Shown piece after piece: positions 161-61,046 of a DNA stretch of 64,000 nt. Under the pieces are notes generated by a model. That model was not told where the DNA came from and searched no databases. It worked only from the letters and a program-made list of their open reading frames with translations. Positions within the stretch are counted from its first letter, which is position 1. Every line of letters begins with the position of its first letter. The DNA is from Rickettsiales bacterium (GTDB lineage Bacteria > Pseudomonadota > Alphaproteobacteria > Rickettsiales > UBA3002): NCBI GenBank assembly GCA_046154225.1, contig JBJXEM010000004.1, positions 102-64,101 on the forward strand, given 5' to 3'. The position numbers and the translations under genes are program-made.

Positions 161-526
161 CTGTCATCCCGGTTTGCGCAGCAACACCGGGATCTAAAAT
201 AAGCTGGAATATAAATCGGCCCATGCAGAATTCATTTCTTTGATGGCGGTTATTTTTTTGGCGCGAGTCCATCGCTTGATTGATTTCTCGCGTCGGATTG
301 CCTGTTCAACTTCGTCGTGTATTTCATAATATACAAGTAGTTTCACGTGGTATTTTTTAGTGAATCCGTCTGCCATCCCGCGTTTATGTTGGTAAATCCT
401 GCCTATCAGATCGCTGGTGACCCCTACATAAAATACACCGTCTTTTTTTGAGGCGAGAATGTAGGTGTAGTAGGCCATCATGGCTCCCCAGATCCCGGCG
501 CTCACTACGTTCGGCCGGGATGACAG
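161..526 (-). mobile_element. GIY-YIG cassette 1: nuclease ORF between two hairpins with perfect 12-bp terminal inverted repeats
   Basis: The left end is CTGTCATCCCGG (161-172) and the right end is CCGGGATGACAG (515-526). Each end is part of a hairpin (161-194 and 491-526). The element fills almost the whole hom-aminotransferase spacer. Confidence 0.55.
194..481 (-). CDS. GIY-YIG nuclease family protein (UPF0213/COG2827-like)
   Basis: The ORF contains YYTYIL...GVFYVGVTSDL..R..QHK...FTKKY...LVYYE...AIRREK.IKRW, the GIY-YIG/URI domain signature. The start is taken at MMAYY, with GGGGAG upstream. Confidence 0.85.
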   Translation of the reverse strand: MMAYYTYILASKKDGVFYVGVTSDLIGRIYQHKRGMADGFTKKYHVKLLVYYEIHDEVEQAIRREKSIKRWTRAKKITAIKEMNSAWADLYSSLF

Positions 527-2770: not shown

Positions 2771-2904
2771 GGCTTGCCTGATATTTTGATGTTGTTTTTA
2801 TTGATTGCGCTATGGCAATTTTTCTCACGCTATCGCCCACCGCGAAGTTTGTCCACGGGTTTTGTGATAGCATCCGCATTCAATTTACGCTAGATGCTGC
2901 GCCC

Positions 2905-4731
2905 ATGAAAAAACGCCCCGCATCTGCTAAAAAACAATCGTCCACTCCAGCCGCGGATGCCGAAGTCGATTCGCAGGCCTTCGCCGAGAATATGGGGCGC
3001 GCCGGAGAATTATGGCAACGCATTGTGCAAACCTCGCTCGCCCACCGCATGGCCAACCCACTCACGCTTGGCTCAACCGACCCGATGAGCCTGATGAGCT
3101 CGATGATGGATTCGGCGAAAAACCTGACGATGGACCCGAACGCTTTGGCCACCGCACAGCTGGGCTACGTGAACGACCATTTGAAATTATGGCAGTGGTG
3201 GACGGGCAAGCTGCTCGGCAAAAACACCGAGCCGTTTGTCGAATCCGCCACCCGCGATAAACGCTTCGCCGACAGCGCGTGGGTGAATTCGGCGTGGTTC
3301 GACCTTATTAAGCAGCAATATCTCGTGAACGCCCGCCACTTGCAGGCCATGGTCGGCCAAATCGACGGCATCGACGACCACACGAAGCGCAAACTCAATT
3401 TCTTCACCCGCCAATATGTCGACGCGCTGTCGCCCAGCAACTATGTGTTCACCAACCCCGAAGTGATGCGCGTGATGTTGGAGACCAACGGCGATAGCAT
3501 CGTGCAGGGCCTTACGCATTTACTGGGTGACCTGGAAAAAGGCGGCGGCGAACTGCGCATTTCCATGACCGACGAATCGGCCTTCGAGCTTGGCAAAAAC
3601 ATCGCCGCCACGCCCGGGCAGGTGATTTACGAAAATGAACTGATGCAACTGATTCAATACGCACCCGCGACCAAACAGGTGCATAAAATTCCGCTGCTAC
3701 TCACGCCTGCCTGGATCAACAAATACTATATTTTCGACCTCACCGCCGAGCGTTCGTTCATTCACTGGATGACGGAACAAGGCTTCACCGTGTTCGTGAT
3801 TTCATGGGTGAACCCCGACGAAAAACTCGGCCGTAAAAAGTTTGATGATTACTTGGCCGAAGGCCCACTCGCCGCGCTGGATGTCATCGAACGCATCACC
3901 GGCTCGAAGCAAACCGCTATGGTGGGCTATTGCCTCGGCGGCACACTCACCGCCATTACGCTGGCCTACCTGCGCGCCCATGGTGAGGAGCATCGTGTCG
4001 CATCGGCCACTTACCTCACCACACTGGTTGATTTCACCGAAGCGGGAGAATTGTCGATTTTCATCGACGATGGCCAGCTGGCCGCACTCGAAGAACGCAT
4101 GAGCGAAAAGGGGTTTTTGGAAGCCGCCGAAATGGGGGCCACCTTCAACATGCTGCGCGCTAACGACCTCATCTGGTCGTTCGTGGTGAACAATTATTTG
4201 CTGGGCAAACAGCCGTTCCCGTTCGATCTGCTGTACTGGAATTCCGACTCGACCCGTATGCCCGCCGCCATGCACAGCTTTTATTTGCGCAACATGTACC
4301 AGCGCAACGAACTCATCAAACCCGGCGGCATTACGCTGCTCGACACCCCTATCAACCTCAGCAAAATCAAAACGCCGACCTATATTCTGGCGACGCGCGA
4401 AGACCATATCGCGCCGTGGATGTCGACCTATGCCGCCACGCAAGTGTATGATGGCGAGGTGATGTTCACCCTCGCCGATTCGGGCCATGTGGCAGGCGTC
4501 GTCAACCCGCCCGCTAAAAAGAAATACGGCTATTGGGCCAGCACCCACCTGCCACCGAAACCGGAAGAGTGGTTTAAAAGCGTGAAGGAACATCCCGGCT
4601 CGTGGTGGCCGCACTGGGCTTTATGGCAAGCCAAAAAATGTGGGCCAATGGTCGCCGCCCGCAAACCCGGCAACGCCCGCTACAAACCCATTGAACCCGC
4701 CCCGGGTAGATACGCGAAGGTTAAAGGCTAA
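2905..4731 (+). CDS. phaC: class I poly(R)-hydroxyalkanoate synthase
   Basis: The protein has the lipase-box GYCLGGT and PhaC-like conserved blocks over about 600 aa. The start is placed at ATG 2905 (MKKRPASAKK). Confidence 0.9.
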   Translation: MKKRPASAKKQSSTPAADAEVDSQAFAENMGRAGELWQRIVQTSLAHRMANPLTLGSTDPMSLMSSMMDSAKNLTMDPNALATAQLGYVNDHLKLWQWWTGKLLGKNTEPFVESATRDKRFADSAWVNSAWFDLIKQQYLVNARHLQAMVGQIDGIDDHTKRKLNFFTRQYVDALSPSNYVFTNPEVMRVMLETNGDSIVQGLTHLLGDLEKGGGELRISMTDESAFELGKNIAATPGQVIYENELMQLIQYAPATKQVHKIPLLLTPAWINKYYIFDLTAERSFIHWMTEQGFTVFVISWVNPDEKLGRKKFDDYLAEGPLAALDVIERITGSKQTAMVGYCLGGTLTAITLAYLRAHGEEHRVASATYLTTLVDFTEAGELSIFIDDGQLAALEERMSEKGFLEAAEMGATFNMLRANDLIWSFVVNNYLLGKQPFPFDLLYWNSDSTRMPAAMHSFYLRNMYQRNELIKPGGITLLDTPINLSKIKTPTYILATREDHIAPWMSTYAATQVYDGEVMFTLADSGHVAGVVNPPAKKKYGYWASTHLPPKPEEWFKSVKEHPGSWWPHWALWQAKKCGPMVAARKPGNARYKPIEPAPGRYAKVKG

Positions 4732-4756
4732 GTTTCGCACGAGCCTCTAGGCGTAC

Positions 4757-4876
4757 GTCATCCCGAATTCATTTCGGGATCCATCAAAGCGCCGTCTGGC
4801 GCGGAACAACCTATTACAGCAATTATACCGTCGCTGATCGCGCCTTGGATGGATCCTGAAACAAGTTCAGGATGAC
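4757..4876. repeat. double-hairpin GTCAT...ATGAC element (E1), no gene
   Basis: The left hairpin is GTCATCCCGAATTCATTTCGGGATCC and the right hairpin is GGATCCTGAAACAAGTTCAGGATGAC. The ends are near-identical to the element at 13412-13526. Confidence 0.8.
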
Positions 4877-4892
4877 GCGGTGGCGAGATCAT

Positions 4893-13346: not shown

Positions 13347-13411
13347 GGCACTGATTGAGCGGAATTACCGCGCGATTGCAAGTAATGAACGCACTATCTA
13401 TGGGCACACCC

Positions 13412-13526
13412 GTCATCCTGAATTTATTTCAGGATCCATCGAAGCGCCGTCTGGCGCTGATAGTCTTCTAATAGGTTATTCGGCAAAGACTTGCCGGGAT
13501 GGATCCTGAAACAAGTTCAGGATGAC
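13412..13526. repeat. double-hairpin GTCAT...ATGAC element (E2), no gene
   Basis: GTCATCCTGAATTTATTTCAGGATCC ... GGATCCTGAAACAAGTTCAGGATGAC. The ends match E1 and the centre differs. Confidence 0.8.
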
Positions 13527-13582
13527 GCCGAAGCATAGTTTTTCCCCAAGAAACTGCCGTTTAGCACCCGTTATGTTTACTA

Positions 13583-14451: not shown

Positions 14452-14540
14452 TGCCATCCCCGCGCAGGCGGGGATCCAGCCCTAAGCGTATCTCGCGGCG
14501 CCGACGCGCCGTACTGGATTCCCGCCTGCGCGGGAATGAC
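14452..14540. repeat. double-hairpin element (E3), no gene
   Basis: CCATCCCCGCGCAGGCGGGGATCC ... GGATTCCCGCCTGCGCGGGAATGAC. The right hairpin has the form ATTCCC-N8-GGGAAT. Confidence 0.75.
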
Positions 14541-14548
14541 AAAAAACG

Positions 14549-27984: not shown

Positions 27985-28009
27985 GTTATGCTAGCATTCT
28001 TACCTATGA

Positions 28010-28846
28010 GCCGACACCCGACACCCGATACCCGACACCCGCCTCGGCTTTAGCCTCGTCGAACTCTCCATTGTTTTGGTCATTCTTGGCCTGCTGACGG
28101 GCGGCATCCTCGCCGGCCAGTCGCTCATCCGCGCGGCACAACTACGATCTGTCAGTACAGAGTATTCACGTTATTACACTGCCACACAGACCTTCCGCGA
28201 TAAATACATGGCCCTTCCTGGAGATATGACAAACGCTACGAAGTTTTGGGGGTTACAAGCTGGGTGTGCTGGTAACTGCCTTACGGTTCCATCAGGTACC
28301 GAGACATTCGACGGGAATGGCGACGGCACGATTCAGTGCATAGGTTGCGATTTAAGCACTACTGGTAATGAAACCTATCGTTTTTGGCAGCAACTTGCGA
28401 ATGCGGGGCTTATTGAGGGCCAATATACAGGCGTACCTGCCGCCGCCCCGGCTTTACCAGAATGGGGGTGGGCATCAAAACTTGGTGTCAATGTCCCAAC
28501 AAGTCGCTTCTCCAACTCGGGATGGAGCATTTTTTGGATCGCCCCCAAGGATATCTCTGATGTTAATTGGTTTGAAGGTGATTACGGTAATATGATGATT
28601 TTTGGTGGTGCGGACAGTACTGGACTGACATGGGTTCCGATGCTTACTCCTGAAGATGCATGGAACATCGATACCAAGTTAGATGATGGAAAGCCTGCAA
28701 CTGGCCGGGTCGTGACCAATGAAAATCAAGGAGGCCAGTGTAGTGATTTAGCGGCCTCTGCTGCTGCATCGCTTGCCGCATCACAATATAAACTGACCAA
28801 TGCTACTATCAGCTGCACACTCGTAATGAAAAGTTCCGCAAATTAA
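28010..28846 (+). CDS. type IV pilin / T2SS pseudopilin-like protein (prepilin N-terminal methylation motif); no in-frame canonical start as sequenced
   Basis: G|FSLVELSIVLVILGLLTGGILAGQSLI at 28046 onward is the class III signal and hydrophobic helix. The only ATGs (27988 and 28006) are in another frame and terminate at TAG 28051-53. GC is lower than in neighbouring genes. Confidence 0.7.
   Translation, partial: ADTRHPIPDTRLGFSLVELSIVLVILGLLTGGILAGQSLIRAAQLRSVSTEYSRYYTATQTFRDKYMALPGDMTNATKFWGLQAGCAGNCLTVPSGTETFDGNGDGTIQCIGCDLSTTGNETYRFWQQLANAGLIEGQYTGVPAAAPALPEWGWASKLGVNVPTSRFSNSGWSIFWIAPKDISDVNWFEGDYGNMMIFGGADSTGLTWVPMLTPEDAWNIDTKLDDGKPATGRVVTNENQGGQCSDLAASAAASLAASQYKLTNATISCTLVMKSSAN
28011..28045 (+). 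repeat. heptanucleotide tandem array (H5, CCGACAC x2, CCGATAC, CCGACAC, degenerate CCGCCTC) inside the pilin leader region
   Basis: Read directly from the sequence. It lies between ATG 28006 and the GFSLVE motif. Confidence 0.85.
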
Positions 28847-28938
28847 AATGCGTATCGTCAAAATGCGATTTCTACAGCCGAAGAATTGAACGTTAACGGC
28901 TCTGGCCCTACGCCCGAATCATCGTGCTTATGGTACTT

Positions 28939-29292
28939 TGTCATCCCGGCGCATGCCGGGATCCGCGCCCCATTAAATTATTTGCTCGTAGAGGTCGACC
29001 CAGTCCGGATTCATCCGGCAGATGGCCTGATATTTGATCGCACGACTCCACCGTTTAATGAGTTTTTCACGGCGTATTGCTTCGGTGATATCGGCATGCA
29101 CTTCGTAATAGACGAGGGTTTTGATACCGTATTTCTTGGTGAAACCTTGAACCAGCCCCTGTTTATGCTCATAGACACGACGCACTAAGTCATTCGTCAC
29201 GCCCACATAGAACGTGCCGTTGCGGCCTGTCGTTAAGATATAAACATAGTAGTTCATTTCAGGCGCGGGCCCCGGCATGCGCCGGGGTGACA
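28939..29292 (-). mobile_element. GIY-YIG cassette 2: nuclease ORF between hairpin-forming terminal inverted repeats
   Basis: TGTCATCCCGGCGCATGCCGGG (28939-28960) matches the reverse complement of 29271-29292 (TGTCACCCCGGCGCATGCCGGG) at 21 of 22 positions. Confidence 0.6.
28973..29257 (-). CDS. GIY-YIG nuclease family protein (second copy)
   Basis: MNYYVYILTTGRNGTFYVGVTNDL..R..EHK...FTKKY...LVYYE...AIRREK.IKRW. By hand alignment, 53 of 92 residues are identical to the copy at 194-481. Confidence 0.85.
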   Translation of the reverse strand: MNYYVYILTTGRNGTFYVGVTNDLVRRVYEHKQGLVQGFTKKYGIKTLVYYEVHADITEAIRREKLIKRWSRAIKYQAICRMNPDWVDLYEQII

Positions 29293-29337
29293 GTTGGTGT
29301 TACAACGACAAACGCATGCTCTTTTTCTTTGGCGCAG

Positions 29338-29361
29338 ACCCCGGCATCCGCCGGGGTGACA
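29338..29361. repeat. solo hairpin of the cassette-2 type
   Basis: ACCCCGGCATCCGCCGGGGTGACA, about 45 bp beyond the right end of cassette 2. Confidence 0.7.
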
Positions 29362-29380
29362 TTTTCTTTTTCAACTAACC

Positions 29381-30286
29381 TTAAGCCCGAATCATCGTGC
29401 TCGCGCCGTGTTCGGTGAAGGTTTCAATGAGCAATACATGAGGGATGCGGCCGTCGAGGATGTGGGCTTGGCTCACGCCTGCTTTCAGGGCATGCACGCA
29501 GGTTTCGACCTTGGGGATCATACCGCCGGTGATGGTGCCGTCGGCAAGCAGCGCGTCGATTTCCGCCGCATCAATCGCGCTGATGAGTTGTTTGTCTTTG
29601 GTTAAAATCCCCGCCACGTCGGTCAGCATCATCAGCTTGGTCGCACCCAATGCGCTCGCGATGGCGCCGGCGGCGGTGTCGGCGTTGATATTATAAGTTT
29701 CGCCGTTCGGGCCCATGCCGATAGGGGCGATGACGGGGATCATGCCGCTCGCCATAATGTTTTGAATCGCCGCGGGGTTGATTTTGGTGGGCTCGCCCAC
29801 GAAGCCTAAATCAAGCACACGCTCGATGTTGCTGTCGGGGTCCTTCTTGGTGCGGCGTAATTGCTGCGCCTCGATGAGGTTGCCGTCCTTGCCGGAAATA
29901 CCAATCGCGGTGCCACCCATTTGGTTGATGGCGGTGACGATTTGTTTGTTGATGCTGCCAGATAATACCATCTCAACAATGTCGACCGCTTCTTCATCCG
30001 TCACGCGCAGTCCGTCGATAAATTCGGATTTGATTTTCAGCCGCTCGAGCATCGCGCCGATTTGCGGTCCGCCACCATGAACCACCACCGGGTTGATGCC
30101 CACGGTTTTTAAAATCACGATGTCGCGCGCGAAAGTTTCCGCCGTGCGGTCATTCCCCATGGCGTTGCCGCCGTATTTGATGACGAACGTGTGGCCCGCA
30201 AACCGCTGGATATAGGGCAGCGCTTCGCTCACCGTTTTGGCGGTGCGCAGTAGCAGTTCCTTGGTTTTTATTGTCTTTATTTCCAT
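29381..30286 (-). CDS. argB: acetylglutamate kinase
   Basis: The sequence contains ALPYIQRF.GHTFVIKYGGNAM and VVHGGGPQI. Confidence 0.95.
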   Translation of the reverse strand: MEIKTIKTKELLLRTAKTVSEALPYIQRFAGHTFVIKYGGNAMGNDRTAETFARDIVILKTVGINPVVVHGGGPQIGAMLERLKIKSEFIDGLRVTDEEAVDIVEMVLSGSINKQIVTAINQMGGTAIGISGKDGNLIEAQQLRRTKKDPDSNIERVLDLGFVGEPTKINPAAIQNIMASGMIPVIAPIGMGPNGETYNINADTAAGAIASALGATKLMMLTDVAGILTKDKQLISAIDAAEIDALLADGTITGGMIPKVETCVHALKAGVSQAHILDGRIPHVLLIETFTEHGASTMIRA

Positions 30287-30292
30287 GAGGGT

Positions 30293-30362
30293 AGCCTACA
30301 GCTTACAGCCCACAGCTTACAGCTTAGCACAAGGGTGCTGTTGGCTGTCGGCTGTTGGCTAC
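30293..30362. repeat. inverted heptanucleotide arrays (H6, unit AGCYTAC / NGGCTGT)
   Basis: AGCCTAC AGCTTAC AGCCCAC AGCTTAC AGCTTAG CAC, then aagg, then GTGCTGT TGGCTGT CGGCTGT TGGCTAC. It overlaps the engB stop and ends 6 nt from the argB start. Confidence 0.8.
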
Positions 30363-42374: not shown

Positions 42375-42423
42375 CAGCAGATAGGCCGCAGATGAGAGCT
42401 TTAGAAACTATGCTTATCACACT

Positions 42424-42513
42424 GTCATGCCAGCGAATGCTGGCATCCAGCTTCTTTAAAAAATCTTGCGATGCAGACGCATCGCACTGGATGCCAGCAT
42501 TCGCTGGCATGAC
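42424..42513. repeat. double-hairpin GTCAT...ATGAC element (E5), no gene
   Basis: GTCATGCCAGCGAATGCTGGCATCC ... GGATGCCAGCATTCGCTGGCATGAC, with a central hairpin TGCGATGCagacGCATCGCA. Confidence 0.8.
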
Positions 42514-42568
42514 AAAACTGGTTTTTCTGACAACGCTTAAACCTGAAACCTGTAACCTATAGGCTCTC

Positions 42569-60526: not shown

Positions 60527-60587
60527 CCGACAGCCGACAGCCGACAGCCTAGAGCTGTTAGCTGTTAGCTGTCAGCTCTAGGCTGAC
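60524..60587. repeat. inverted heptanucleotide arrays (H9, unit AGCCGAC / GCTGTTA)
   Basis: AGCCGAC x3 and AGCCTAG, then GCTGTTA GCTGTTA GCTGTCA. There is a perfect 13-bp stem, CAGCCTAGAGCTG (60544-56) with CAGCTCTAGGCTG (60573-85). The array overlaps the pepA stop and abuts the holC ATG. Confidence 0.85.
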
Positions 60588-61046
60588 ATGACCACGATCC
60601 AATTCTACCACTTGCTCTCCACCACGCCGGAACGGGCGGTGCCGAAATTAATGGAAAAGGCGCTGGCCGGGAATCACCGCGTAGTCATGCTGCTGCGCGA
60701 CGCCGAGGCGCTCAAACGCATGAGCGATACGTTGTGGAGTGCCGACGCATCGAGCTTTTTACCCCATGGTAGCTCCAAAGAAGGTCGCGCAGCCGACCAG
60801 CCGATTTATCTCACCACGGCGGATGAAAATCCCAACCACGCCGACCTGCTATGCATCCTGAACGCCAGCGCACCCGCGGGTCTTGTCGAGTATGCGCGGG
60901 TGCTCGACATGTTCGATGGCAGCAACGAGTCCGAAGTGGCCCTCGCCCGCGAACGCTGGAGCGCGCACAAAGCAGCGGGCCACACGCTGCAATACATCAA
61001 GCAACAACCCGGCGGCGGCTGGAAAATCGAGGCCGAAGCGGCTTAG
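60588..61046 (+). CDS. holC: DNA polymerase III subunit chi
   Basis: It starts MTTIQFYHL. Its size and its position after pepA are the classic pepA-holC pair. Confidence 0.82.
   Translation: MTTIQFYHLLSTTPERAVPKLMEKALAGNHRVVMLLRDAEALKRMSDTLWSADASSFLPHGSSKEGRAADQPIYLTTADENPNHADLLCILNASAPAGLVEYARVLDMFDGSNESEVALARERWSAHKAAGHTLQYIKQQPGGGWKIEAEAA

Follow-up and report, generated by a model that had tools for sequence, protein, structure and literature searches.

How does a small cassette that encodes a nuclease and no recombinase come to lie between two copies of the same gene end? The question is raised by the 3′ end of argB, which encodes acetylglutamate kinase, in the 64,000-nucleotide stretch of DNA analysed here (hereafter referred to as the window). 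The last six codons of the gene and its stop codon are written twice, and the 452 nucleotides (nt) between the two copies hold a GIY-YIG open reading frame (ORF), a pair of inverted hairpin arms and a third hairpin unit. Ssn proteins are site-specific single-stranded DNA (ssDNA) nucleases that are accompanied by NTS/SRM hairpins in an ‘NTS-ssnA-NTS’ layout (Chenal et al., Nat Commun 2025, PMC11893778). The features of the argB locus (cassette 2) are listed below with a second unit of the window (cassette 1); L164 denotes a second lineage with a cassette at argB, and L004 a relative without one.

29381–30286, minus strand: argB, 301 amino acids, ending ...GASTMIRA-stop (TIGR00761 argB, E 2e-81, and PF00696); 86–93% identical to ArgB of related MAGs.
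29381–29401, minus strand: near (proximal) copy, TTAAGCCCGAATCATCGTGCT, contiguous with the argB body and forming its working last six codons and TAA stop; the repeat reaches 29379–29401.
29362–29380: 19-nt spacer from the argB stop to H1; the L164 spacer is equal in length, with 9/19 nt identical.
29331–29361, minus strand: H1, an extra SRM-type hairpin unit found with the repeat finder, TGTCACCCCGGCGGATGCCGGGGTCTGCGCC on the minus strand, which fits the NTS/SRM pattern of PMC11893778.
29262–29292, minus strand: H2, the SRM hairpin directly upstream of the nuclease gene, forming an inverted pair with H3 (31 nt, 90% complementary).
28973–29278, minus strand: ssn-type GIY-YIG nuclease gene (PF01541, E 1e-15, residues 9–83), an ORF of 94–101 amino acids.
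28939–28969, plus strand: H3, the SRM hairpin that follows the nuclease gene (plus-strand sequence, TGTCATCCCGGCGCATGCCGGGATCCGCGCC); 30/31 nt identical to its L164 counterpart.
28929–28938: 10-nt spacer from H3 to the far copy; the L164 spacer is equal in length, with 4/10 nt identical.
28908–28928, minus strand: far (distal) copy, CTACGCCCGAATCATCGTGCT (minus strand, AGCACGATGATTCGGGCGTAG), now non-coding; the repeat reaches 28906–28928.
28043–28846, plus strand: convergent pilin-like gene downstream of the far copy, with the prepilin-type N-terminus GFSLVELSIVLVILG; homologue of the gene after argB in L004 (tblastn, 45% identity, E 9e-44).
163–525, minus strand: cassette 1, a second SRM–ssn–SRM unit, whose nuclease is 58% identical to that of cassette 2.

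The near and far copies are identical at 19 of 21 nt, 17 of them consecutive (exact core, GCCCGAATCATCGTGCT), and the pair delimited by the repeat finder is 23 nt long, at 91% identity. On the minus strand, both copies read AGC ACG ATG ATT CGG GC(T/G) TA(A/G), or S-T-M-I-R-A-stop, and their only differences in the window, GCT/GCG and TAA/TAG, are synonymous or exchange one stop for another. The preliminary description of this DNA had reported this pair of 21-mers, with both copies encoding the same peptide and a stop, and the sequence bears it out as written. That description had also considered that the 17-mer might belong to a longer dispersed repeat, an origin that is ruled out because, at up to two mismatches, the 17-mer occurs at two sites only in the 64-kb window. 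A duplication extending deeper into argB is likewise ruled out in the window, since past the repeat agreement drops to 2 of 10 nt; in L164, there is slight additional similarity past the repeat, into argB. Hand translation revealed no conserved ORF over the far copy in the two lineages, and we rejected the idea that this copy is still translated. Chance similarity or an assembly chimera is effectively refuted as the source of the pair: none of 100 shuffles contained a match to the 17-mer, the region is 100% identical in three independently assembled contigs from three sequencing runs, and the duplication is conserved in L164.

An ORF listing and a profile search identified the GIY-YIG gene as the only credible ORF between the repeats, in line with the earlier observation that this nuclease is the only enzyme on board, and we detected no recombinase gene in or beside cassette 2. 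The nuclease probably starts at the ATG at 29257, which gives 94 residues (MNYYVYIL...); the longer ORF begins within H2. The preliminary description had placed a cassette and one extra hairpin in the roughly 450 bp between the copies, and this content stands with revised extents: the arms pair over 31 nt at 90%, rather than at 21 of 22 positions of a shorter stretch, and the third hairpin spans 29331–29361 rather than 29338–29361. No known RNA family, terminator or promoter was found in the region, with nothing above noise in Rfam; H1 scores as a terminator-like hairpin on the plus strand only.

Judged by its sequence, cassette 2 consists of a gene for a predicted ssDNA nuclease of the Ssn family, set between the hairpins (SRM/NTS) that serve such enzymes as binding repeats. 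The protein, a single GIY-YIG domain of about 94 residues as in the Ssn family, aligns without gaps to Neisseria gonorrhoeae SsnA (translated from L202) at 49% identity (BLASTP, E 1e-34). Residues Y6, Y17, R27 and E64 are invariant in an alignment of 25 sequences, among them Neisseria SsnA and the two proteins of the window; Y6, Y17 and E64 are the catalytic residues mutated in the SsnA study (PMC11893778). The three hairpins (28939–28969, 29262–29292 and 29331–29361) read TGTCA(C/T)CCCGGCG(C/G)ATGCCGGG(G/A)(T/C)C, comparable to the NTS CGTCATTCCCGCGMAVGCGGGAATCYRG (PMC11893778), and agree with the NTS consensus CGTCATTCCCGCG..GCGGGAATC. As in the Ssn family, hairpins of the form (C/T)GTCA-stem-loop-stem-TC flank the gene in inverted orientation, and further hairpin units without a gene are dispersed in the genome; a near-exact NTS-like unit lies at 14519–14540 of the window. 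The GIY-YIG nuclease and flanking hairpins of the earlier ‘GIY-YIG cassette’ are confirmed; that description had not identified the cassette as an example of the already published Ssn nuclease/SRM hairpin unit.

Ssn binds its hairpin solely as ssDNA and cuts a few nucleotides upstream of it; the enzyme has been demonstrated as a hydrolytic ssDNA nuclease only, and no role in the movement of its own gene has been demonstrated (PMC11893778). The layout of gene plus hairpins was likened to an insertion sequence, whether and how the unit moves was left open, and the text nowhere mentions target-site duplication and reports no insertion footprints (PMC11893778). Apart from that study, we found no bacterial literature on GIY-YIG proteins with MITEs, REPs or intergenic mosaic elements. 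The presence of an Ssn cassette inside the last six codons of argB is, as we read it, rare sequence evidence of cassette insertion into genomes, and it supplies concrete insertion junctions for units described only in 2025 (PMC11893778).

Relatives without the cassette indicate what the site probably looked like before insertion. In L001, L002, L003, L004 and L084, whose ArgB proteins are 86–93% identical, there is no cassette and one argB end each, abutting or near the next gene (L084, from a metagenome scan, was the only close relative among the matches listed there). The possibility, raised in the preliminary description, that cassette-free relatives keep both copies does not hold, as the end is single in five of five. 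At the native junction, the stop codons of argB and rppH overlap in L002 and lie 2 nt apart in L084. L164 has the order argB end, 19 nt, H1, 39 nt, H2, ssn, H3, 10 nt, second argB end (16 contigs of this type were read, and the nine fetched were all identical), and 2 nt separate its far copy from the rppH stop. Since this geometry equals that of the native junction in L002 and L084, the far copy in L164 is the displaced original terminus. By the same comparison, the far copy of the window is read as the displaced native terminus on native downstream DNA, and the near copy is the one that now completes the protein. A third lineage, L174, carries a homologous cassette (nuclease 84–85% identical) at the same junction, without the duplication and without H1.

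We found no empty site from the same species: every contig retrieved with the exact ArgB and nuclease proteins was 100% identical to the window. The exact pre-insertion sequence can therefore only be inferred, with a predicted junction in which the argB end is followed directly by ...GGCCAGAGCCGTTAACG. Every contig of this strain has the cassette, and no excision product or circular junction occurs in any contig. At third codon positions, the window and L164 are 55% identical in the nuclease gene and 60% in argB; by this measure, the argB insertion is old rather than recent. That the cassette recently passed horizontally between the two lineages is unsupported, as the nuclease gene has diverged like argB at these positions. 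Since the cassettes have diverged to the same degree as the genomes that carry them, the data are equally compatible with one ancient insertion that was inherited vertically and lost precisely several times.

The far copies of the window and L164 agree at 17 of 21 nt, whereas the spacers nearby agree at 29 of 68 (Fisher p = 0.002). All four copies, two from each lineage, share an unchanged 13-nt core, CGATGATTCGGGC; in lineages that lack the cassette, 1–4 of the 13 positions deviate from it. The non-coding 13-nt relic has remained unchanged though the adjoining spacers have lost more than half of their identity. Conservation of this kind would fit a genuine att site, with the 13–17-nt core as the crossover point for a site-specific recombinase encoded elsewhere in the genome and the cassette cycling between integrated and circular states; the patchy occurrence of the cassette among lineages and the direct target repeats around it, single-copy at unoccupied sites, would fit as well. 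We nevertheless regard an att site as most improbable, given that no recombinase gene lies in or beside the cassette, that the core lacks the inverted-repeat arms usual for integrase cores, that circular junctions are absent from the contigs, and that L176 has a comparable duplication whose length and mismatches set it apart from an att core.

The differences between the copies bear on which of them came with the element. In L164, the far copy has GCT TAA, as in its closest relative L002, and the near copy has GCG; in the window, the far copy has GCG, as in L003 and L084, and the near copy has GCT. These comparisons comprise one or two sites per lineage, and no tree can be built on as few as 21 nt, but the single sites favour a native far copy, and a foreign origin of the near copy is suggested. 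At the 5′ end of the L164 far copy, AACG also replaces AGCA, two non-synonymous changes that look like decay of a relic. L164 argB carries the ...TAGGA variant, as in L002 and L004, right up to the repeat; it is thus native up to that point, and any imported tract would be at most about 25 nt.

A second gene shows the same pattern in mirror image. In L176, codons 1–15 of an iscU-like gene occur on either side of a different cassette, and the two copies differ at five positions, all of them third codon positions and four of the five synonymous; the restriction to third positions likewise points to the far copy as native. Each L176 copy differs from L200, the duplication-free counterpart of the iscU case, at six positions by hand comparison, which is uninformative on which copy is foreign. 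Among about 37 distinct cassette loci, duplicated gene ends were thus found in two locus types, argB (window and L164; 21–23 nt) and iscU (L176; about 45–65 nt). No flanking gene-end duplication was found at cassette 1, which lies 7 nt past an aminotransferase stop and 9 nt ahead of the next start codon, at L173, L174, L177, L178, L188, L194–198, L200 or L227, or at the IMG/VR loci with sequence on either side; nor was a 2–5-nt duplication at the hairpin ends seen by eye at cassette 1, L173 and L227. In keeping with mobility of the family, nuclease genes 80–83% identical to one another occupy differing loci, iscS|iscU (L200), iscU′|iscU (L176) and kdsA|eno (L227). Identical nuclease copies at multiple loci, a sign of current activity, were not found, and each exact protein occurs in one genomic context.

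This survey bears directly on classical target-site duplication, in which nicks staggered by about 21–23 nt in the argB end would have been filled in, leaving two native copies that later drifted. GIY-YIG endonucleases of Penelope-like retroelements generate variable-length duplications, the repeat directly flanks the whole composite, and both the native argB of L164 up to the repeat and the decay-like changes in its far copy would be accommodated. The absence of duplications at about 35 other ssn loci, including short ones where hairpin ends were inspected, argues against a routine target-site duplication and makes an obligatory one at ssn cassettes unlikely; the junctions suggest that the target is normally not duplicated on insertion. 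Moreover, the lengths vary widely between argB and iscU, all five L176 differences fall at third positions (P ~0.03 by a rough estimate if one copy had drifted neutrally), and Ssn cleaves ssDNA next to its own hairpin rather than a hairpin-free target. We therefore consider staggered nicking an unlikely origin of the argB repeats.

Alternatively, the cassette may first have entered between argB and the next gene, and slippage, repair or rearrangement may later have copied the argB end, perhaps together with H1. L174, with a cassette at the same junction and neither duplication nor H1, and L200, its equivalent for iscU, could represent the earlier state, and in the window a 45-nt stretch made up of H1 and 14 further nt matches the equivalent stretch at H2 at 82%. 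In L164, however, the flanks of H1 and H2 are dissimilar, and the far copy occupies its native place beside rppH, which puts the cassette within the former argB and not beyond it. A secondary local duplication would also require a like event at two unrelated genes, and we find it highly doubtful.

We hold with moderate confidence that the pair of 21-mers was left behind when, long ago, an SRM–ssn–SRM unit inserted into the last six codons of argB, with the terminus borne by the element and joined through host recombination. The earlier proposal that an element entered the argB 3′ end and brought or regenerated its terminus is supported by the single-copy relatives and by the L164 far copy beside rppH. 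How the duplication arose we infer, and host recombination across an element-borne gene end is our best guess. The cassette would have arrived carrying a short copy of the argB end, and host recombination would have integrated it across the 17–23 nt of identity, either in a Campbell-like manner or, equivalently, by a double crossover in which both copies acted as minimal arms of homology; cleavage of ssDNA by Ssn beside the hairpins may have supplied recombinogenic ends. Such a route would make an integrase unnecessary, would differ from a transposase-type target-site duplication, and would resemble, in outline, that of fungal mitochondrial mobile ORFs. The junctions also show that insertion into coding sequence is survivable when a replacement gene end comes along. 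Counting against host recombination, RecA-dependent exchange is usually efficient only with homologies at least as long as these 17–23 nt.

More tentatively, SRM–ssn–SRM units might be nuclease-only mobile elements that can bring along a short, recoded copy of the end of a host gene and use it as a movable arm of homology, which would act like an att site that needs no integrase. If so, such cassettes could enter the coding ends of essential genes in related genomes and keep the gene intact, and selection on the element would maintain the 13–17-nt core on both of its sides. The mitochondrial mobile ORFs would then have a first counterpart on a bacterial chromosome, and how Ssn units move would be directly evidenced for the first time.

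A comparison with known systems places the argB cassette among several types of element. Integrase islands at tRNA or gene 3′ ends share with it the direct repeats of the target 3′ end (attL/attR), an element-side copy that keeps the gene intact, and patchy occupancy, whereas the element here is about 450 nt long, lacks a tyrosine or serine recombinase and has an imperfect repeat. REP/BIME sequences with RAYT (Y1, HUH) and IS200/IS605 likewise combine a small nuclease gene with flanking hairpins bound as ssDNA, the hairpins are multiplied in intergenic DNA, and most copies lack a target-site duplication. By contrast, the enzyme here has the hydrolytic GIY-YIG fold and chemistry, with no covalent intermediate known, and since a strand of the cassette carries its hairpins in inverted, not direct, orientation, two cuts cannot excise one strand. 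In homology-facilitated illegitimate recombination, naturally transformable bacteria integrate foreign DNA using little homology, with short duplications or deletions near the joint; L164 argB differs in showing no long donor tract. Compared with the Ssn units described so far, the present one, with its predicted nuclease activity, is caught within a gene end, with the terminus regenerated and with relatives that retain single-copy sites.

The closest analogue is the ‘mobile ORFs’ (mORFs) of fungal mitochondria, which bring a replacement gene C-terminus and are found in Allomyces atp6 and in Glomus atp6, atp9, cox2 and nad3 (PMC3630166). In both cases, an endonuclease gene (GIY-YIG in Glomus atp9) lies at the end of a conserved gene, and the copies differ mostly synonymously (PMC3630166). 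As at argB in the window and L164, the inserted terminus completes the gene and the native one is displaced downstream, with iscU in L176 as the mirror image at a 5′ end. The mORFs encode multi-domain, double-strand homing enzymes, and their duplications measure 50–300 nt and are clearly foreign by phylogeny (PMC3630166), whereas the cassette encodes a tiny predicted ssDNA nuclease that would recognize its own flanking hairpins, and its duplications measure 21 nt, or 45–65 nt at iscU. Because Ssn cuts ssDNA beside its own hairpin, classical homing is unlikely for the cassette. The argB locus thereby ties a bacterial element to a phenomenon so far known from fungal mitochondria.

Two copies of the argB 3′ end flank a GIY-YIG nuclease cassette at the positions reported in the preliminary description: a near copy, which forms the working last six codons and stop of argB, and a distal far copy. 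The two 21-mers are identical at 19 of 21 nt, 17 of which form an uninterrupted core, and both do encode S-T-M-I-R-A-stop on the minus strand, differing only in GCT/GCG and TAA/TAG. A repeat finder lengthened the pair to 23 nt (91% identity), and a search for the 17-mer with up to two mismatches returned only these two sites in the 64-kb window and no match in any of 100 shuffles. An assembly artefact is excluded, since three contigs, independently assembled from three sequencing runs, match the window exactly at the argB–cassette region. The window contains the following features:

29381..30286, minus strand: argB, a 301-aa ORF (TIGR00761, E 2e-81), ending in the near copy (29381-29401)
29331-29361: third hairpin unit (H1), between the two repeat copies
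29262-29292 and 28939-28969: inverted hairpin arms (H2 and H3), 31 nt each, 90% complementary
28973..29278, minus strand: GIY-YIG ORF (PF01541, E 1e-15), between the two repeat copies; with H2 and H3, cassette 2
28908-28928: far copy
163-525: cassette 1, a second Ssn/SRM unit, whose nuclease is 58% identical to that of cassette 2
4756-4877, 13411-13527, 14452-14541 and 42423-42514: four gene-less inverted SRM-type hairpin pairs, 90-120 nt end to end

A 100-aa ORF antisense to the nuclease gene (28886-29188, plus strand) spans the far copy; it is probably spurious, because it lacks a counterpart in the related locus L164, which has stops there in all frames.

The Ssn family consists of GIY-YIG proteins with a single domain and about 94 aa, which target an oriented hairpin repeat, the NTS (CGTCATTCCCGCGMAVGCGGGAATCYRG), generically named SRM; they bind the hairpin only in single-stranded DNA, on one strand only, and cut a few nucleotides upstream of it (Chenal et al. 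2025, PMC11893778). Repeats lie on both sides of 42% of Ssn homologues, and the authors pointed out the likeness of this gene-plus-repeats layout to an insertion sequence; their text gives no insertion footprints and does not mention target-site duplication (PMC11893778). The window nuclease is 49% identical to Neisseria SsnA over its full length (E 1e-34), and retains Y6, Y17 and E64; its homologues number more than 7,800 at E <= 1e-10, and the cassette 2 hairpins fit the NTS pattern. Judged from sequence, what had been described as a GIY-YIG cassette with TIRs belongs to a type already known, being a predicted Ssn/SRM unit in function and family. The same kind of hairpin lies beside homologues in Rhizobium, Sinorhizobium, Shinella, Azospirillum and Novosphingobium replicons; a scripted scan found no flanking hairpins at the Rhizobium tumorigenes locus (L198). 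The gene-less hairpin pairs of the window resemble miniature cassettes, and the hairpin unit at 14519-14540 (TGTCATTCCCGCGCAGGCGGGAATCCAG) is nearly the Neisseria NTS consensus.

The window's clade comprises uncultured bacteria labelled Rickettsiales, across which ArgB is 86-93% identical and the third codon positions of argB are only 50-62% identical; its lineages are therefore deep and roughly star-like. Cassette-free relatives in five lineages carry the single argB-end copy that the preliminary description expected of an empty site. The argB stop codon overlaps that of rppH, the downstream NUDIX gene, in L002 and is separated from it by 2 nt in L084, whereas argB is followed by a homologue of the window's pilin-like gene in L004 (TAG stop), by a different gene in L001, and by other small repeats and one solo hairpin in L003. 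The composite found in the window (H1 and the H2–ssn–H3 cassette between two argB-end copies) recurs in the L164-L172 lineage (16 contigs read; nine fetched, identical to each other), with a nuclease 91% identical to the window's. The order in L164 is argB ...AGCACGATGATTCGGGCGTAA, 19 nt, H1, 39 nt, H2, ssn, H3, 10 nt, AACGCGATGATTCGGGCTTAA, 2 nt and the rppH stop. Because the far copy lies against rppH, as the native end does in L084, it is the displaced original argB end, and the insertion therefore occurred inside argB, 21 nt before the stop. This position, together with the single-copy relatives, supports the proposal that the cassette entered the argB 3′ end: it inserted inside the coding end, the terminus was regenerated and the native end was retained. 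In L174/L175, a homologous cassette (nuclease 84-85% identical) lies between argB and rppH without the duplication and without H1. The rppH ORF reads through hairpin H3 in L174 (675-1196; 173 aa vs 159) and through the solo hairpin in L003 (5040-5573); in both, the normal stop is lost and the SRM hairpin encodes 12-16 extra residues, giving the tails ...PINNMSSRRMPGSAPA (L174) and ...IQLDSRLRGNDK (L003). An SRM insertion of some kind occupies this tight convergent junction in four of eight lineages, each accommodated differently.

Among about 37 distinct cassette loci whose flanks we inspected (fetched contigs repeating a locus not counted), gene-end duplication occurs only at argB (window, L164) and iscU (L176). 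L176, whose nuclease is 76% identical to the window's, is a second and independent case: its cassette lies between two copies of an iscU-like gene start. Over codons 1-15 these copies differ at five sites; each is a third position, and four are synonymous. The upstream iscU′ copy ends 3-4 nt short of the hairpin, and the truncated iscU′ ORF (2894-3004, 36 codons) runs through the left hairpin to a TGA stop that overlaps the nuclease ATG (ATGA), suggesting that nuclease translation is coupled to the start signals of the host gene. A ribosome-binding site of its own serves the downstream copy, which leads into the genuine iscU-like gene. Related cassettes are present in L200 (81% identical), upstream of iscU and with no duplication, and in L227 (83% identical), between kdsA and eno; nuclease genes whose similarity is roughly that of the two iscU-locus copies thus occupy different loci. 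Duplication of a gene end happens occasionally and is not the rule. A transposase-type target-site duplication, a rival explanation of the paired gene ends, is expected at every cassette copy but is absent at most loci inspected; by eye, no 2-5-nt duplication was found at the hairpin ends of three simple cassettes. The nuclease gene is co-oriented with the upstream gene in the 16 loci with both genes called or annotated (nine metagenome loci, L200, L227 and five replicon loci).

Many more distant loci carry 70-106-nt direct repeats of hairpin-pair modules on both cassette sides. Such repeats surround ssn in L195 (S. meliloti; 440-1200), L204, L205, L225 and L226; in L195, ssn is directly preceded by the 3′ end of another ssn copy, in tandem. 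This would fit cassette duplication by staggered nicks and then fill-in. Direct repeats of about 29-45 nt (ACGTCCGCTA....GTCGTGTCCTGACAG) at 469-497 and 1079-1107 flank the L199 cassette (Novosphingobium pNL2); the left one is separated from its hairpin by about 135 nt and the right one by about 25 nt. They represent either a target duplication or another repeat family.

Heptamer repeats also occur near argB. The only upstream ATG (28007) of the pilin-like gene is shifted by +1 relative to the reading frame of the gene body (GFSLVELSIVLVILG...), and four tandem heptamers (CCGACAC; 28011-28038) lie between the two (28007-28046); since loss of one heptamer would restore the frame, the gene is either phase-variable or a pseudogene. 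In L004, the homologue begins with MQRGFSL... and lacks such repeats. The argB/engB spacer (30293-30356) is heptamer-periodic (AGCCTAC, AGCTTAC, AGCCCAC, AGCTTAC, then the partly complementary GCTGTTGGCTGTCGGCTGTTGGC), with the set at 30339-30353 complementary to 28009-28023. A similar run lies at 60547-60592, and L176 has a comparable palindrome (GTGGCCGGTGGCCAGTGA...TCACCGGCCACTGACCAC).

Between the window and L164, third-position identity is 55% for the nuclease gene and 60% for argB, which makes both cassettes as old as the split of their hosts. The three non-coding spacers inside the composite are identical at 29 of 68 nt, hairpins H1, H2 and H3 at 28-30 of 31 each, and the far, non-coding argB-end copy at 17 of 21, including all 13 positions of a core (CGATGATTCGGGC); the far copy is thus conserved above the spacers (Fisher one-sided p = 0.002). 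The core is common to all four copies, and the other six lineages deviate from it at 1-4 positions. Possibly, the far copies lost their coding role only recently in each lineage, by separate insertions; alternatively, the two copies may have been kept alike through exchange, or the core may be functional for the element. A comparison of window 29262-29361 with L164 2919-3018 revealed that the upstream hairpin variants (H1, GGAT/GGGGTC and H2, GCAT/GGGGCC in the window) are reversed in L164, and the G/T difference of the argB-end copies is likewise swapped, a hint of exchange between repeats. The outer spacers, which separate each repeat copy from the outer hairpin next to it (window 28929-28938 and 29362-29380; L164 2898-2916 and 3341-3350), keep lengths of 19 and 10 nt in both lineages, with only 13 of 29 nt identical. 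IS608 cleaves at offsets of 19 and 10 nt from its end hairpins, a match that may be coincidence.

We favour a mechanism in which the cassette would arrive with a short copy of the gene end and be integrated by host recombination across it, either by a single crossover involving a circular form or by a pair of crossovers located in the two copies; speculatively, Ssn nicks in single-stranded DNA beside the hairpins could supply recombinogenic ends. An element-borne gene end is favoured because the copies differ at synonymous positions in the window and L176, a pattern that coding evolution of both copies in separate genomes would be expected to produce; by our estimate, relic-like drift of one copy would give the L176 third-position pattern with P ~0.03. 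It is also favoured because, in both lineages, the far-copy Ala codon matches the nearest relatives and the near-copy codon does not (a comparison of one variable codon), and because argB in L164 matches the type of its clade as far as the repeat. An exchange, if there was one, was therefore confined to about 25 nt, as either crossover scheme would predict. The age of the event, the very few informative sites and the short homology weigh against the recombination reading. As far as the literature searched shows, the regenerated gene terminus beside an Ssn cassette is new, the cassette type being known, and it provides a useful clue to how Ssn/SRM units insert.

By outcome, the closest described phenomenon is that of fungal mitochondrial mobile ORFs. 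These endonuclease ORFs come with a replacement C-terminus, and the native terminus is left downstream, as in Allomyces atp6 and Glomus atp6, atp9, cox2 and nad3 (PMC3630166). The likeness of the argB cassette to integrase islands at gene 3′ ends is limited to the flanking repeats. REP/RAYT and IS200/IS605 elements resemble the Ssn cassette in pairing a nuclease gene with hairpins, usually without target duplication, but differ from it in enzyme type.
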